From Fimbriimonadaceae bacterium (GTDB lineage: Bacteria; Armatimonadota; UBA10988): DNA of 64,000 bases. The DNA lies in NCBI GenBank assembly GCA_020850355.1, contig JADZEX010000081.1, forward strand, positions 131,113-195,112, in the 5' to 3' direction. The position numbers were made by a program, and so were the translations under genes. Shown one piece after another: positions 27,935 to 34,133 of the stretch. Position 1 is the stretch's first letter, and every line of letters starts with the position of its first letter. The notes beneath the pieces were generated by a model that worked only from the letters and a program-made list of their open reading frames with translations, was not told the DNA's origin and ran no database searches.

Positions 27935-28498
27935 TCAGGCGGTTCGCCGCTGCGCGGCCCACTCCTCGCGCCGGATCCGCATCAGGTGCAGGTCGTGGCA
28001 CTGCCCGCGGTGGTAGAACGCCTCGCGGCGCGTGCTGGCGACCCGCAGACCGGCCTTCTCGTAGACCCGCTGCGCGGCGAGGTTGGTGGTGAAGACCTCG
28101 AGTTCGACGCGCTGCAGGGCGAGGTCGTCGAACAGGAACTCCAGCAGCAGGCGCACCGCGGCGGTGCCGTGGCCCTGATTCCAGCAATCCCGCTCACCAA
28201 TCGCCAGGCCGATCGTCGCCCGTTGATTGGGGAGATCGAGGTAGTCGGTGCCGGCGGTGCCGATGGGCAGCCATTGCGCGTCGTGGCAGACCTCGACGAT
28301 GAACAGGCGGTTGCTGGGGTCGGCGATCTGGTCGGCGTACCAGTGCTGCTCCTCGGCCGCCGTGAGCGGCGCGAACAGCCCAAGGTTGCCGCGCACCACG
28401 GGGTCGCCGTACCAGCGCAAGAGGTGCGCCAGGTCGCTGGCCAGGGCGCGCCGCAGCCGCCGCGGGGCGGCCGTCAGAACGGTCCGTTCAGCGGCCAT
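27935..28498 (-). CDS. GNAT family N-acetyltransferase
   Basis: 187 aa. Acetyl-CoA binding region QGHGTAAVRLLLEFLFDDLALQRVELEV. Confidence 0.75.
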   Translation of the reverse strand: MAAERTVLTAAPRRLRRALASDLAHLLRWYGDPVVRGNLGLFAPLTAAEEQHWYADQIADPSNRLFIVEVCHDAQWLPIGTAGTDYLDLPNQRATIGLAIGERDCWNQGHGTAAVRLLLEFLFDDLALQRVELEVFTTNLAAQRVYEKAGLRVASTRREAFYHRGQCHDLHLMRIRREEWAAQRRTA

Positions 28499-30252
28499 CA
28501 GCGGCCCGCGAGGTAAGCGTCGGCATGTTGCTTCATCTGGTCCCACGGCCAACCGGCCGGGTCGGGTTTGCCCCGCAGGCCGCCGGCGAAGTCCTTGTGG
28601 TAGACCACGCCCTCCACGAAGGACTCTCGGGGGATGTGACGCAGCGGAATAGCCTGGCGACGACATATATCCGCCACCAGGCGCCCGACCGACCGAATCT
28701 GGCCGGCCGTGAAGTCCCAGCCGTTGGCGACGATCTCGATGCCGATGGTCTCGGAGTTGAAGTCGTAAATCGGCCCGGTGTTGCGCCACTGCCCGGTGCC
28801 GGCGTGGCGCGTGATGGTCTGCTCTTCGGCCAACTGCAAGACGGTGCCGGCGCGCAGCACCAGATAGTGCACGCCGATGGTGCTCGGCTCGGGCAGCACC
28901 TGCGCGCCGGGGGTGATGTCCTGGTAGAGCTTCGAGAGCAGCCCGTCGCTGGAGCTGGTCAGCGCGTTCAGCGAGCCGCCATCGCTCTGGGTGGCGGTGT
29001 GGTGCAGGACCACCCAGCGGGGCCAGCTCGGACGCTGCCAGCGCATCGTGCCGGGCCGCGTGTCGTGGATGGCACGGCCGTCCGGCCGCGGGCGCTGGCG
29101 CCCTGCGAAGGCCATCGCGGCGCTATCGAAAACCACGCCGCTGGGGCCGACATTGCGTCCGCGGCGGGTCACGCGGCAGGTCTTGCCGGCGACGTTGACG
29201 GCGGTGGTTTGGACCAGGTCGCGGTCGTCGATGCCAAAGCGGTCGGTGCGGCCGAGGCTGGTTGCCCAACTGCGGCCGTCGGGCGCGGCGACCGGGGCCG
29301 GCGCCAGCCAGTCGGGCGATGGCCGCAGCGGCACCCGGCTGTCGATGGTCGCCAGCAGCGTGTGCTCGCCGCTGGCCAGGGCGGTCTGCCAGAGCCCCGT
29401 CTGGCCCTCGCGCCGGGCCAGGTAGAGCGCCTGACCGTCGCGCCAGCCGACCAGCGACTCGGTCGGTCCGGCCAACGGCCAGCCCTTGACGACCTCGCCG
29501 TTGGGCCGCCGCTGCTGCGCCCAGGGGCCGTCGGGCTCGGCGGTCTGAATCCAGATGGTTTCGCCCGCCCAACTCGCGCCGAGCACCTGGCAGTCGGGCT
29601 GGGCCGGATAGGCGAAGGTCGGCGCGGCGGTGGGCTGGGCCGCTTGGAAGACCAGCAGTTGCTGCCCGAGGCGCGCGGCGACCAGGCCGTTCGGACCGGG
29701 CCAGACGCCGTCCAGGCCGGCCATCGTCACGACGCGCTGGGGGGCGCCGGCGGGCGGAAGCTGCCACAGACCGCTCGTCTCGCCCTGCGGCACGGTCACC
29801 CAGAGCAGGCCCGCGGCGTCCCAGGCGAAGCTCTGGCGCGTGCGCGGCGTGATGGCGCCGACCCGCAAGGGAGCGCTGAGCAGCCTGGCGTCGGCAGCCT
29901 GCCAGACGCCCACCGCGCCCTGGCCGTCGCTGCCGCCCTGCAAGTAGGCGATCCGCGTGCCATCAGGTGAGGCCTGCCCGCAGCCGAAAGCGCCAGGGCC
30001 GCCCCACAGCCGGGCCGCCGCGGTGCGCACGTCGATGGTGTAGAGCGGCCCGAGCGGGGCGGCGTTGAGGCGGTCATGGTGCGACTCGAGGTGCAGCCGC
30101 GGGCCGTCGCCCGACCAGACCGGCTGGCCCCCCGGCCCGAGCCAGCGCAGACTGGGCGCACCAGGGGTGTAGAGGTGGACGCCGGCGGTGCGCACGAGAG
30201 GTTCGCCCGCCAGCAGGCCGGCGCAGGTCAGCAGAACGACGAGGTTGCCCAA
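28498..30252 (-). CDS. secreted beta-propeller (TolB/WD40-like) protein fused to C-terminal N-acetylmuramoyl-L-alanine amidase (Amidase_2/PGRP) domain
   Basis: TTG start after GGAGGG. Signal peptide LGNLVVLLTCAGLLAG. Repeated W/G-rich blades. C-terminal LHHTAT...GVHYLV...IGIEIVANG amidase_2 motifs. Overlaps GNAT start by 1 nt (TGATG). Confidence 0.65.
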   Translation of the reverse strand: MGNLVVLLTCAGLLAGEPLVRTAGVHLYTPGAPSLRWLGPGGQPVWSGDGPRLHLESHHDRLNAAPLGPLYTIDVRTAAARLWGGPGAFGCGQASPDGTRIAYLQGGSDGQGAVGVWQAADARLLSAPLRVGAITPRTRQSFAWDAAGLLWVTVPQGETSGLWQLPPAGAPQRVVTMAGLDGVWPGPNGLVAARLGQQLLVFQAAQPTAAPTFAYPAQPDCQVLGASWAGETIWIQTAEPDGPWAQQRRPNGEVVKGWPLAGPTESLVGWRDGQALYLARREGQTGLWQTALASGEHTLLATIDSRVPLRPSPDWLAPAPVAAPDGRSWATSLGRTDRFGIDDRDLVQTTAVNVAGKTCRVTRRGRNVGPSGVVFDSAAMAFAGRQRPRPDGRAIHDTRPGTMRWQRPSWPRWVVLHHTATQSDGGSLNALTSSSDGLLSKLYQDITPGAQVLPEPSTIGVHYLVLRAGTVLQLAEEQTITRHAGTGQWRNTGPIYDFNSETIGIEIVANGWDFTAGQIRSVGRLVADICRRQAIPLRHIPRESFVEGVVYHKDFAGGLRGKPDPAGWPWDQMKQHADAYLAGR

Positions 30253-30477
30253 GGAGCCCTCCGCAGGCAGGATGCAGCAGCGGTCGGGTGGCGTCAAGGC
30301 GGGCGACGGGGGGCGCAGGCCCAACAGCAGACCCGACGAGGGCCCCAGTGAGCGCCATCCGCGCCACGGACGCAGCAGCTCCGAGCGTCCAGCTTGACGG
30401 CGCTCGCCACGACCTGCTACTCTCCAACTGCGTCGCCCAACCAGCCGAAGGGTTTGCCGAGCGGAGCCAGGCCAACA

Positions 30478-30909
30478 ATGCCAGCCAAGGAGTACCATCA
30501 GCTTCCAAGATGCCCATGCAAGAAGCTGCGGTACCGCTATGATCCTTGTGAGGGTCGAACGAAGCACAAGTGGCGTGAAGGTGCGGCGGGCTTTGCGCCT
30601 GTGGGCAAGTTCATTGTTGGCAAGTGTCCTTGCGGCATGTCCAATGCCGAGGCCGAGGCCATCCTCAACAGCGGGATGGGCGAGTATGACCCGGGTGACG
30701 AGCACCCAAAGAAGATCTACGCGGTGCATAATGGCGTTGTCTACATAGCTATGCGGAACAACGACGGCAACGCGTATCATGGCTATCCAGCAACTCGGCG
30801 TGATGTTGTCGGCAGCGCATACCGGTACGTGCTAGAAATGGCTGACCGCGACCAGTGTATGCAAGCCGCCAAAGCGTGGCTGAAGGAGCACCGCGGTGGC
30901 AACGGATAG
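30478..30909 (+). CDS. small Cys-rich hypothetical protein (2x CPC motifs; possible zinc ribbon / HNH-like core)
   Basis: 143 aa. Motifs PRCPCKK...C...GKCPCG then YAVHNGVVYIAMRNNDGNAYHGY. Low-GC codon usage. 14-nt overlap with the downstream gene. Confidence 0.55.
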   Translation: MPAKEYHQLPRCPCKKLRYRYDPCEGRTKHKWREGAAGFAPVGKFIVGKCPCGMSNAEAEAILNSGMGEYDPGDEHPKKIYAVHNGVVYIAMRNNDGNAYHGYPATRRDVVGSAYRYVLEMADRDQCMQAAKAWLKEHRGGNG

Positions 30910-32329
30910 TGGATTCTCCATAGACATTGACTTCAGTCAGGATGTTGATGCCGGATCCCGCCAGCGACCTTTGGACGGGGGCCTCGTCCTCAAGATTGGA
31001 CGGTGGTTGCCGTGGAATGAGCAGGATGAGCGGGGCCAGCCCGTTCCAGACCAAGACTGCTGGCGAAGTCTGCTTGAGTGGATGAGTGACGCCTGGTTGT
31101 ACCTTCGGCACGACACCACAGAACCGTTGCGGCTACTAGGCAAGCCACTGTCCAATAACCCCGCGCTCTGGTGGGATGAGGCTCTCGACCGCTGGGATAG
31201 TCCCGACTACGACTCGGACCGGGCCTCGAAAGAGGAAAGCGATCTAGTTGATTGGCTGAACAATCACGACATCTCGTGCGGTTTGCCCGAGAAGTGCGGT
31301 GCACGTGTAGTGTTTCTTCGGGTGGGTGCCCAGTGCATGGTAAGTTGCCCGGATGGGTCTGTGACGTTGGGGCTGGAAGAGGCCTTGACGGAGCTAACTC
31401 GGTGTGGGGATACCTTGGCCGAGAGGTTGCGGGGCTCGACGCTGCCGGCCGACCAGGCCCTTGTGGCACGATGGAAGAGCCGGGACAACACGTCAGTGGA
31501 GGGCCGCTTGGCGGCCTTCGGCGCCAACGTTCAGGTTCTTCGTGCGCTGAGGTCCAGCGAAGCCTTGGCGACATGGTCCCTCGAGCTGGATGCCGTCGAT
31601 CCCAATGCCAATCCTCTGCTGTTGGCGGCTCGGGCATGTCAAGATGAGCTGCCTACCGACATCCTGAGTAAGCTGCTGGCCCAGATCAGAGAGATCCGTG
31701 AGAGGCCCACCCCTGTGGTGGATGAGTTGGCTCGCAAGGTAACGGCAAGTCTGCGTCGATCCAGCCGTACCAAACCGTTCAGGCAGGGGTACATGGCGGC
31801 CGCGACCTTGCGTTCTCGGCTCGGTGCTGCAACTGGTGCAATCGATCCGGTCGAGCTGTTGGACCGTTGGAACGTAGCGGTGCAGCACCTCCAGCTTGGA
31901 ACGGAGGTCATTGATGCGGTGGCCTGCTGGGGAGGTGGCTACGGGCCGGTGATCCTAGTGAATGACGACGGTCGGCACGCTCAGGGTACTAACGGTCTGC
32001 GTGCAACACTCGCGCACGAGATCGGCCACCTCATGGTGGACCGCTGGGATTGCGTGCCTGTTTGCGATGTGAGCGGGCTCCGCTCTCGTCTGCCCCACGA
32101 GCAACGCGCCAATGCCTTCGCTGCTGAGCTGCTCGTGCCGCAGGACGAGATCAAGCGACGACTCATACCGGGGTGCCAGGTGACTGCGGTCGTCACCGAC
32201 CTGGCTGCTGAGTACGGCGCGAGTCGGCAGCTCGTGGCTTGGCACGCCACCAACTCGGCGACCGAACTGGATTCCCGCGCCAAGGGCGCGCTCCGCGATC
32301 TCTGTGACGAGGACGATACCTGGAGTTGA
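30896..32329 (+). CDS. ImmA/IrrE-family (COG2856, DUF955) zinc metallopeptidase-domain protein with about 270-aa N-terminal domain of unknown function
   Basis: GTG start 7 nt after AAGGAG. C-terminal motifs ATLAHEIGHLMVD (HExxH) and ANAFAAELLVP, diagnostic of ImmA/IrrE peptidases. Confidence 0.75.
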   Translation: MATDSGFSIDIDFSQDVDAGSRQRPLDGGLVLKIGRWLPWNEQDERGQPVPDQDCWRSLLEWMSDAWLYLRHDTTEPLRLLGKPLSNNPALWWDEALDRWDSPDYDSDRASKEESDLVDWLNNHDISCGLPEKCGARVVFLRVGAQCMVSCPDGSVTLGLEEALTELTRCGDTLAERLRGSTLPADQALVARWKSRDNTSVEGRLAAFGANVQVLRALRSSEALATWSLELDAVDPNANPLLLAARACQDELPTDILSKLLAQIREIRERPTPVVDELARKVTASLRRSSRTKPFRQGYMAAATLRSRLGAATGAIDPVELLDRWNVAVQHLQLGTEVIDAVACWGGGYGPVILVNDDGRHAQGTNGLRATLAHEIGHLMVDRWDCVPVCDVSGLRSRLPHEQRANAFAAELLVPQDEIKRRLIPGCQVTAVVTDLAAEYGASRQLVAWHATNSATELDSRAKGALRDLCDEDDTWS

Positions 32330-32339
32330 TGGCGACTGG

Positions 32340-32624
32340 CGCGGCCAGCCCGGGGATCCGGTCAGTTGGATCAGCGTGCAGTCGGCCCCGCCGCTGCTGC
32401 CACCCTACAGCTCGGGCAGCTTCCAGAGCCGGCTGCTGCCATTGCTGCAGGCCGGCCACGGCGGCACCCGCCTGGCCGCCGCCGAACTGCGCACCTTGGC
32501 CACCTGGCTGGACCTGCTGGTGCCCTACTGCGGCGACTACACCGAGGCGCACGCCTGGAGCCCGGAAGAGGTCGCCAAGTACCAGCACTTCAGCGACAAG
32601 CGCCGCCGCCTGGCAACGCCGTAG
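32340..32624 (+). pseudogene. 5'-truncated gene remnant (C-terminal fragment of unknown protein)
   Basis: High-GC ORF resuming exactly where the low-GC islet ends. Coding-like periodicity (…LVPYCGDYTEAHAWSPEEVAKYQHFSDKRRRL) but no start context and no N-terminal part anywhere upstream. Confidence 0.35.
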
Positions 32625-32663
32625 CCGCGCCGGTGAGTCAGGCTGGTTCGTCGGCGCCGCCCG

Positions 32664-34133
32664 CTAGCGCACGCGGTCGCGGAGCCAACCGGCGACTTCG
32701 TCCTTGGCCAGCCGGACCTGCTGCATCGTGTCGCGGTCGCGGATGGTGACCTTGCCGTCGTCGTCGATGGTCTGGTGGTCGACGGTGATGCAGTAGAGCG
32801 TGCCGATCTCGTCCTGCCGACGGTACAGCTTGCCGATGGCGCCGGTGTCGTCGTACTGCACGCTGAAGTCCTCACGAAGCTCGGCGGCCAGGGCGCGGGC
32901 GGTGGCGACGAGGTCTTCGCGGTTGCCGGCCAATGGCAGCACGGCGGCCTTGATGGGGGCCAGGGTGGGGTGCAGGCGAAGCAGCGTACGGGTCGCCTTG
33001 CCGCCCTTCTGGTCGGTGTACTCTTCCTCGGTGTAAGCCTCGGTCAGGAACGCCAGCACGTTGCGGTCGACCCCGGCCGACGGCTCGACGACGTGCGGCA
33101 CGACGCGGCGCTCGGTCTTGGTGTCGAAGTAGTCGAGCGTCTTGCCGCTGAACTCGGCGTGCTGCGACAGATCGAAGTCGGTCCGGTTGGCAATGCCCTC
33201 GAGCTCGGCGAAGCCGATCGGGAAGCGGTAGAGGATGTCCACGGTGCGCGTCGAGTAGTGCGAGCGCTTGTGGTCGGGGTGCTCGTAGAGGTCGAGATTC
33301 TCGCGGGCGATGCCGAGCCGGGTGTACCAGGCGATCCGCGCGTCGATCCACTCCTGGTGCTTCTCGGCCGACTGCTCCGGCCAGCAGAAGTACTCGATCT
33401 CCATCTGCTCGAACTCGCGGGTCCGGAAAGTGAAGTTGCCGGTCACGATCTCGTTCCGGAAGGCCTTGCCGACCTGGGCGATGCCGAACGGCAGCTTGCG
33501 GCGCATCGTCGTCAGGACGTTGTCGTAGTTCACGAAGATGCCCTGGGCGGTTTCGGGGCGGAGGTAGGCGATGCTGCCTTCGACCGGCCCGACCTGCGTC
33601 TGGAACATCATGTTGAAGGCCCGCGGCTCGGTGAACGACCCGGCGGCGCCGCACTTCGGGCAGACCTGCGGGGTGCCCTCCGCGGCGTCGATCACCATCG
33701 GCGCGGCGCTGACTTCCCAGCGCTTGCCAATCTGGTGCAGCTCGCGGCCCTTGCTCAGCGCCTCGTCCTCTTCGCCGGCCTCCACCGCGTACTGCTTGCT
33801 CTCGTCGCGGTGCGTCGCGGTGAGGCACCAGAGGTGATCGGCGCGGAATCGCGCTTTGCATTCCTTACAATCGACCAGCGGGTCGTTGAAGACCGCGACG
33901 TGGCCGGACGCCTCCCACACCCTGGGGTGCATCAGGATGCTGGCGTCGAGCGGTTCCATGTCGTCGCGCTGCTGCACGACGGCCTTCCACCACTGGGCCT
34001 TGATGTTGTTCTTGAGCAACGTCCCGAGGGGGCCGTAATCGTAGGTGCTCTGGAAGCCGCCGTAGATCTCGCTGGACGGGAAGATGAACCCGCGACGCTT
34101 GCAGAGCGAGACCAGCTTGTCCATGGTGACCAT
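32664..34133 (-). CDS. glyQS: glycine--tRNA ligase (single-chain alpha2 type)
   Basis: Motifs MDKLVSLCKRRGFIFPSSEIYGG and class II aaRS motifs. ATG preceded by AGGAGG 8 nt upstream. Confidence 0.9.
   Translation of the reverse strand: MVTMDKLVSLCKRRGFIFPSSEIYGGFQSTYDYGPLGTLLKNNIKAQWWKAVVQQRDDMEPLDASILMHPRVWEASGHVAVFNDPLVDCKECKARFRADHLWCLTATHRDESKQYAVEAGEEDEALSKGRELHQIGKRWEVSAAPMVIDAAEGTPQVCPKCGAAGSFTEPRAFNMMFQTQVGPVEGSIAYLRPETAQGIFVNYDNVLTTMRRKLPFGIAQVGKAFRNEIVTGNFTFRTREFEQMEIEYFCWPEQSAEKHQEWIDARIAWYTRLGIARENLDLYEHPDHKRSHYSTRTVDILYRFPIGFAELEGIANRTDFDLSQHAEFSGKTLDYFDTKTERRVVPHVVEPSAGVDRNVLAFLTEAYTEEEYTDQKGGKATRTLLRLHPTLAPIKAAVLPLAGNREDLVATARALAAELREDFSVQYDDTGAIGKLYRRQDEIGTLYCITVDHQTIDDDGKVTIRDRDTMQQVRLAKDEVAGWLRDRVR

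Follow-up and report, generated by a model that had tools for sequence, protein, structure and literature searches.

M78 metalloproteases are known as destroyers of helix-turn-helix (HTH) repressors, as in the case of ImmA, IrrE and CapP, and as the antitoxin component of the RosmerTA toxin-antitoxin (TA) systems. In the ImmA/ImmR, IrrE/DdrO and CapP/CapH pairs, the protease is activated by a cue of stress or infection such as single-stranded DNA (ssDNA) and cleaves its HTH partner; both IrrE and CapP bear a C-terminal GAF-like domain. For ImmA/ImmR and IrrE, activation of the M78 protease by a stress cue, followed by cleavage of the partner protein, has been reported (PMC10440598; PMC2701414). 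The present analysis concerns a pair of overlapping genes in a 64,000-nt stretch of DNA (hereafter the window, of about 72% guanine-cytosine (GC) content overall) from a Fimbriimonadaceae metagenome-assembled genome (MAG) of the phylum Armatimonadota, in which the second gene couples an M78 domain to an apparent toxin-binding immunity domain, with no DNA-binding part, and the first very probably encodes a toxin, as judged from its relatives. On balance, the pair is read here as a self-contained, horizontally mobile two-gene module of the TA or abortive-infection type that resembles RosmerTA and has an immunity-type domain in the place of the HTH.

Among the described systems, RosmerTA is the closest in organization. 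Its Zn-peptidase proteins are confirmed antitoxins (PMC10440598; 10.1101/2022.05.11.491447), which pair with varied toxins, and deletion of rmrA was unobtainable, possibly through toxicity (10.1101/2022.05.11.491447). ImmA has also been described as a hub antitoxin domain in NetFlax (node D25, PMC10440598), and COG2856 has been associated with RelE and PIN toxins (PMC2701414). The combination of a toxin and a Zn-peptidase antitoxin is thus already known in kind. With RosmerTA the window module shares a two-gene unit made of a variable toxin and a larger M78-bearing partner, the toxin-first order (found in 58% of that group, PMC10440598), and a mobile, patchy distribution that sometimes includes defence islands. 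RmrA-type proteins, however, often have an N-terminal Xre HTH, which suggested HTH cleavage as the means of control (PMC10440598), whereas the window protein has none and about 315 residues of immunity-like domain and linker occupy its place. Thirteen RmrA models match the large protein of the module (best E 3.8e-12), in the peptidase part only (residues ~255-461), and no RmrT model, the toxin side of RosmerTA, matched the small protein in PADLOC at E<=1.

The module also differs from ImmA/ImmR, IrrE(PprI)/DdrO and CapP/CapH, where the protease cleaves a separate Xre-type repressor in order to de-repress genes, while the window protein has no repressor partner, ends soon after the M78 core and carries the immunity-like fusion at its N-terminal end. 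Replacement of the HTH by an immunity-like domain, and the toxin family itself, are outside the coverage of Pfam, NCBIfam, PHROGs and PADLOC. No description of this architecture was found in the literature on M78/COG2856 antitoxins and RosmerTA, of which coverage was incomplete, so that novelty is not proven, and none of six family members checked has its accession in the NetFlax supplements; likewise, no description of the RosmerTA mechanism was found in the literature searched.

A two-gene unit conserved across phyla

The large protein is identical to MCC7495279.1, which was deposited from a Fimbriimonadaceae MAG as 'ImmA/IrrE family metallo-endopeptidase', an annotation that conceals two-thirds of it. 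The gene located immediately upstream was originally predicted to overlap it by 14 nt, and this is exact, since the small open reading frame (ORF) stops at the TAG listed in Table 1; the succession of AAGGAG, GTG and TAG at this junction indicates translational coupling of the large gene to the small one. For the small gene the most likely start, as read from the DNA, is the ATG at 30478, which fits the homologues better than the deposited version (MCC7495278.1, 102 aa from the GTG at 30601). The latter begins downstream of a Y..KHKW motif, and because a motif conserved in the family is thereby omitted, the deposited annotation is probably too short.

Table 1. Positions, in the window, of the two genes, of the parts of their predicted products and of the low-GC islet
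Feature	Position	Strand	Details
Small gene, predicted toxin	30478..30909	+	ATG 30478, 143 aa; GGAG 30463-30466 (11 nt upstream); ORF open from 30394
Toxin N-terminal extension	30478..30612	+	aa 1-45; module-specific Y21...K-H-K-W motif
Toxin core	30613..30897	+	aa 46-140; C50-P51 (30625-30630), helix 56-65, four strands, [WY]-H101-G-[YF]-P104 (H101 = 30778-30780), two C-terminal helices
Junction	30883..30909	+	AAGGAG 30883-30888, 7 nt 5' of GTG 30896 (large gene); TAG 30907-30909 (small gene); 14-nt overlap
Large gene, predicted antitoxin or switch	30896..32329	+	GTG start, 477 aa
N-terminal alpha+beta domain, immunity-protein-like	30896..31435	+	aa 1-180; invariant W67, H124, R142
Helical linker	31436..31840	+	aa 181-315; poorly conserved, indels, lowest confidence ~aa 210-240
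M78 (ImmA/IrrE/CapP-type) metallopeptidase domain	31841..32305	+	aa 316-470; HEIGH 32015-32029, E402 32099-32101, NAFAAELLVP 32111-32140
Low-GC islet	30400..32350	.	contains the two-gene module alone; from GC windows

Full-length homologues of the large protein have 450-520 aa and 25-34% identity. At the five loci for which gene calls are deposited, a gene of 132-139 aa whose product has no Pfam domain runs 4-37 nt into the peptidase gene. The survey was then based on one genome per species, which gave 80 loci, with 154 loci fetched in all; a hidden Markov model (HMM) of residues 1-300 identified the fusion of N-terminal domain and M78 domain in 57 of these 154, corresponding to 53 non-redundant loci, and an HMM of the small proteins located, for about 45 of the 53, a homologue of the small gene whose end lies at the peptidase start. 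The hosts belong to at least six phyla (Gamma-, Beta- and Alphaproteobacteria, Magnetococcales, Planctomycetota, Chlorobiota, Actinomycetota, Desulfovibrionaceae and this Armatimonadota MAG), and Proteobacteria, Planctomycetota, Chlorobiota, Actinomycetota and Armatimonadota are all represented among the ~45 paired loci. The two genes have been kept together, as a strict pair, across phyla. An all-against-all BLAST of 341 neighbouring ORFs gave no neighbour family common to unrelated loci. A larger conserved system was considered and rejected; the 1343-aa ORFs found upstream at two loci, L002 (SMC/AAA-type) and L009 (read as Mfd), are unrelated.

The unit is incomplete at a minority of the loci. 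Only remnants of the toxin are found at L014 and L022, the toxin gene of L041 is frameshifted, and the large gene stands as an orphan, with no toxin upstream, at L009 (5872-7302), L020 (5740-7392), L044, L048 and L049; the orphan of L009 directly follows a gene that we take to be mfd, and that of L020 follows what is presumably rpoN. In the window, the module forms a 1.9-kb islet, a trough of 56-66% GC between flanks of 72-77% (300-nt and 1-kb windows), which points to its horizontal transfer.

The small gene encodes a probable toxin

The small protein belongs to no family of Pfam, NCBIfam or PHROG, and its profile found nothing among the PDB sequences at E<=10. The same profile finds 533 relatives in a 90% clustered database and 588 clusters in a 50%-identity library; the 120 listed of the 533 have no Pfam domain and no name except 'hypothetical', and nearly all of the best 150 of the 588 clusters are free-standing proteins of ~60-220 aa. 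That the small protein is very probably a toxin is suggested by two sets of sequence matches, to the effector end of NsnC and to the ends of RHS and other long proteins. The first is with model PDLC03898 (NsnC), the only PADLOC match of the small protein at E<=1 (E 2.8e-6), and lies in the last third, that is, at the effector end. NsnC is the effector of Menshen, and its C-terminal domains have been described as polymorphic toxin domains, which are BECR ribonucleases (RNases) in 9 of 15 families (PMC12065111). Secondly, the toxin core terminates some long proteins: it occupies the C-terminus of P0201, P0253 and P0264, three proteins whose N-terminal parts are unassigned and which are hit by the NsnC model with E values of 1e-23 to 1e-27; in P0287 it follows RHS repeats, and in P0218 a region that resembles the PADLOC candidate-system protein PDC-M02B. 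Another long protein, P0169 (599 aa), is matched at eleven separate places by profile positions 86-104 (the WHGYP stretch); it is likely to be a repeat or low-complexity protein with no relation to the module.

Structure work on the toxin, for which database relatives were used, gave an AlphaFold2 (AF2) model in which the core (helix 56-65; strands 67-69, 79-84, 87-93 and 100-104) has a predicted local distance difference test score (pLDDT) of 76-91. The BECR core has been described as one helix followed by four strands (PMC12065111), a layout that the toxin model reproduces, and the best fold match of the small protein was a CdiA-CT toxin domain (5t87_E). From the sequence matches and the model together, the small protein is plausibly an RNase, the structural evidence being weak by itself; H30, K77/K78 and the invariant H101 are candidate catalytic residues. 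In the alignment of 269 sequences the invariant or near-invariant positions are Y21, K-H-K, C50-P51, A59, G86, [FY]89, A91 and [WY]100-H101-G-[YF]-P104. The N-terminal extension that precedes the core lies outside the stretch common to the long proteins, in which the match is confined to profile positions ~45-123; within the extension, Y21 is invariant and the K, H and K residues are 82-93% conserved among the 269 relatives, and AF2 confidence is low (pLDDT 44-66 for residues 1-45). Compared with NsnC of Menshen, the small protein thus shares the effector-end match and the BECR-like helix and four strands, but it is devoid of the inPIN N-terminal domain and has instead its own extension and an invariant Cys-Pro. 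Neither NsnA (ParB-DUF262) nor NsnB (ABC ATPase) was found among the ORFs that flank the window module. The module belongs neither to Menshen nor to CBASS (cyclic oligonucleotide-based antiphage signalling system) nor to the ImmR-type systems.

The original prediction also described the small protein as Cys-rich, which turned out to be peculiar to this orthologue: of its six Cys residues C50 alone is conserved, being kept in all 269 relatives having that column, and cysteine richness was for this reason rejected as a family trait. Residues 12-52 of the window toxin (30511-30633) contain an additional CPC...C...CPC arrangement (C12, C14, C24, C50, C52) that is not seen in the relatives and that may be a lineage-specific metal site.

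An M78 peptidase fused to an immunity-like domain

The AF2 model of the large protein (pLDDT 85.2; predicted TM-score 0.86) comprises three parts, an alpha+beta domain, a helical linker and the M78 domain. Pfam Peptidase_M78 (PF06114) matches residues 326-448 with an E value of 6.7e-8 and 32.8 bits, above the gathering cut-off of 22, and the motifs HEIGH (residues 374-378), D382, E402 and NAFAAELLVP (residues 406-415) are all present, so that the ImmA/IrrE signature noticed at the outset is borne out. Alignment of 24 homologues showed H374, E375, H378, D382, E402, R404 and the A405-A410 stretch to be invariant, with N406 in at least 90% of them; the downstream Glu that serves as third zinc ligand in the M78 family therefore accompanies HExxH throughout, as had to be checked, and by its motifs the protease is catalytically intact. 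The fold agrees with those of solved M78 members, and the PprI-ssDNA complex is among the fold matches of the large protein. The C-terminal third is also matched by CapP of PADLOC, by the thirteen RmrA models mentioned above and by PHROG 2439, as well as by the NCBIfam spr1629 antitoxin model, the latter with a score well below its cut-off.

The part located ahead of the peptidase core had been predicted to be an extension of 270 residues of unknown function. A long extension is indeed present; it measures about 315 residues rather than 270, and it consists of two regions, the domain and the linker, rather than of a single domain. The N-terminal domain matches no Pfam, NCBIfam or PHROG family. 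Its best fold match is CdiI 5ffp, an alpha+beta protein of the Immunity 23 (Imm23) family; from domain size and secondary structure the match presumably falls on residues 1-180, and in the model the domain looks like the fold of a polymorphic-toxin immunity protein. As defined, Imm23 comprises alpha+beta immunity proteins that have a WxW motif (PMC3482391). The consensus of the N-terminal domains reads WxWxxLLEWL, a motif of low information, of which the window protein retains the second Trp only (C-W-R).

The domain also appears to evolve with the toxin. Over 36 pairs of toxin and large protein, toxin divergence tracks that of the N-terminal domain best (Pearson r 0.87; partial r 0.51, compared with 0.16 for the linker and 0.19 for the M78 domain), which agrees with a direct interaction and is not a rigorous test of it. 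As in the pairs of contact-dependent inhibition (CDI) and Rhs systems, the toxin and immunity folds (the CdiA-CT 5t87_E and the CdiI 5ffp being the best matches) are encoded side by side, toxin then immunity. The two matched structures, however, come from different CDI systems, the toxin of the module is free-standing and presumably intracellular, and the immunity-like domain, besides forming part of a protease fusion, showed no sequence-level relation to Imm23.

Absence of a helix-turn-helix partner

In the absence of a repressor the module departs from the ImmA/ImmR, IrrE/DdrO and CapP/CapH switches, which are recognised by an adjacent or fused HTH repressor of the Xre type; no such repressor was found here. 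None of ten further ORFs of 69-215 aa, taken from the two strands of 30074-32749, had an HTH match at E<=1, and the linker region, searched alone as residues 176-315, gave no HTH or other Pfam match at E<=10, so the original prediction that no HTH partner is present stands for both strands and for the linker. When the family profile was compared by hhalign with P0024, a canonical HTH-M78 protein, residues 292-469 alone were aligned and the HTH of P0024 had no counterpart. The neighbourhoods of the homologues, which were also to be inspected for Xre genes, gave the same picture: clustering of the ORFs of up to 160 aa within 800 nt of 53 modules showed no HTH and no conserved third gene, and the called neighbours at five loci have no HTH Pfam domain.

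Proposed mechanism and alternative explanations

Taken together, the cross-phylum pair, the toxin-type domain and the immunity-like fold of the N-terminal domain support the proposal of a non-canonical two-gene module, TA-like or abortive-infection-like and without Xre. In the RosmerTA-like module favoured here, the first gene would yield a small intracellular toxin, probably a BECR-type RNase, and the second, translationally coupled gene its neutraliser. The N-terminal alpha+beta domain would probably bind the toxin and block it directly, and the variable helical linker would tether this immunity-like domain to the M78 protease, which would be a trigger-responsive switch by analogy with ImmA/ImmR, IrrE/DdrO and CapP/CapH. 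Once activated, the protease would cut the immunity domain, the linker or the conserved N-terminal extension of the toxin, and this cleavage would free the toxin and result in cell arrest; neutralisation at the protein level would then replace the HTH repressor of the canonical systems. In this scheme toxicity, RNase activity, binding of the toxin by the N-terminal domain, the cleavage event and the nature of the trigger are all presumed, and it is by analogy that we infer a gating of toxin release by the protease at the protein level. Since the HTH target is missing in the family, the candidate substrates are the linker or immunity domain, which would amount to self-inactivation, and the N-terminal extension of the toxin. 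Self-inactivation is the preferred model and cleavage of the toxin extension its main rival.

If such a mechanism is confirmed, the module would provide a simple two-protein system in which to study how M78 proteases sense their cue and choose their substrate, it would add a widespread family (588 toxin clusters at 50% identity) to the catalogue of TA and defence systems, and it would imply that the toxin and immunity folds of interbacterial competition have been reused in intracellular modules.

Several points weigh against this interpretation. The invariant C50 is atypical of BECR RNases. The fold-search output came without aligned residues, so that the placement of CdiI on the large protein is indirect; moreover, neither Imm23 nor any other Pfam family was found in 24 N-terminal domains (E<=10), and the profile of the domain found nothing among the PDB sequences (E<=10). 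The pairs used for the comparison of divergences are non-independent, and the signal may stem from differences in evolutionary rate. The loci with an orphan large gene fit orphan antitoxins and, equally, a function independent of the toxin. Finally, most neighbours are housekeeping genes, as at the window locus, and the apparent enrichment in defence islands is modest.

A more ambitious version of the RosmerTA-like reading can be offered tentatively, as a possibility that has the lesser share of our confidence: the module may be an unrecognised anti-phage or stress switch, in which the protease, with the immunity protein for an RNase toxin as a fused domain, would itself sense the trigger (e.g. 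phage ssDNA or a phage protein) and cleave either its own linker or immunity domain or the N-terminal tether of the toxin, freeing the toxin within one polypeptide complex. Such a switch would parallel the ImmA/ImmR, IrrE/DdrO and CapP/CapH circuits while acting post-translationally and without a repressor, and would connect polymorphic-toxin immunity folds with TA and defence systems.

It may also be considered, as an unlikely explanation, that the protease acts on a pro-toxin, either activating it by trimming the disordered Y..KHKW extension or degrading the toxin constitutively, with the N-terminal domain serving for docking or as a sensor. The first ~45 residues of the toxin are conserved in module copies only, outside the stretch shared with RHS and NsnC-type proteins, and this conservation, together with the low model confidence, makes them resemble a recognition or cleavage segment; in addition, the substrate of known M78 proteases is a specific partner protein (PMC2701414; PMC10440598). 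Nevertheless, no cleavage site is known, and the N-terminal domain matches in its fold a dedicated immunity protein and is the part that co-varies most with the toxin, which points to stoichiometric neutralisation and not to mere docking.

That the small protein is instead a regulator, possibly metal- or nucleic-acid-binding, which would be cleaved under stress to control other genes as in an ImmA/ImmR-like pair, seems quite improbable. The canonical M78 partners are regulators, the CPC...C...CPC of the window copy could bind zinc and the invariant Y, H, C and H residues are possible ligands; against these considerations, C50 is the sole conserved Cys, the core is homologous to the effector domains that end RHS and NsnC-type proteins, no target genes are conserved beside the pair, and no DNA-binding family was detected in Pfam, NCBIfam or PHROG. 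The resemblance of the toxin core to CdiA-CT, its occurrence behind RHS repeats in P0287, the likeness of the N-terminal domain to CdiI and the existence of orphan loci with the immunity gene only could also suggest a displaced Rhs/CdiA toxin tip with its immunity gene, which would serve interbacterial competition and not intracellular TA or defence. This is very doubtful, as the copies in modules begin at starts of their own and carry an N-terminal extension specific to the module, the best clusters of relatives are, as stated, nearly all free-standing, no RHS or CdiA gene is among the 25 most frequent neighbour families, and the immunity-like domain invariably comes attached to an intact protease, for which an ordinary immunity protein has no need. 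As for the anti-repressor of a degraded prophage or integrative and conjugative element, now functionless, that the original prediction kept as an alternative, it can practically be dismissed. In its favour, prophages commonly carry M78 domains, PHROG 2439 and 87 give matches, many of the matches in viral contigs are M78-only and the islet has a foreign GC content. On the other side, just one of 66 viral-contig matches is full length (L089, beside an AbiV gene), neither a tRNA gene nor boundary repeats were detected in the window, and the neighbours examined included no integrase or phage gene. The two intact ORFs, the invariant catalytic residues and the cross-phylum pair are signs of purifying selection. 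A prophage origin was accordingly rejected on the viral-contig scan.

Genomic surroundings

At two loci the homologous module lies among defence genes. In L001 (4585-6401, JGI 3300042191, Ga0395778_0000482) it is located inside a bacteriophage exclusion (BREX) system, between the PglX-type methylase and PglY/BrxC-PglZ. In L089 (3295-5140, IMGVR_UViG_2523231027_000002), an AbiV (HEPN) gene follows directly downstream and ParB-like and DUF6035/CoiA-nuclease-like genes lie upstream, surroundings that look like a defence hot spot. A scan of 148 neighbour proteins gave four matches to mad2, two each to mad3, type I methylases, AriA, PIN and SMC/AAA_15-type proteins, and one to SLATT_6, with the qualification that several of these matches may fall on the same proteins. 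Integrase and transposase families are absent from the 25 most frequent neighbour families.

In the window, the module lies between an amidase gene and glyQS: on one side are ruvCAB, a GNAT gene and the Amidase_2 gene, on the other glyQS, as read from ORF translations and, for Amidase_2, from Pfam. A search of the window found no tRNA gene, neither direct nor inverted repeats were convincing at the GC boundaries, and promoters or terminators of consensus type were not found at the module. An antisense ORF of 760 aa (28498-30780, minus strand), with Amidase_2 at residues 587-741, covers the initial ~300 nt of the toxin gene; the 5' portion of this ORF probably results from over-extension, as is typical of high-GC DNA, the true start lying further in. 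At the other end, an ORF of 106 aa without Pfam match (32304-32624, plus strand) overlaps the final 26 nt of the peptidase gene; its GC content of ~0.71 is host-like, and it may be a genuine small gene, a chance ORF or the end of a gene that the islet interrupted.

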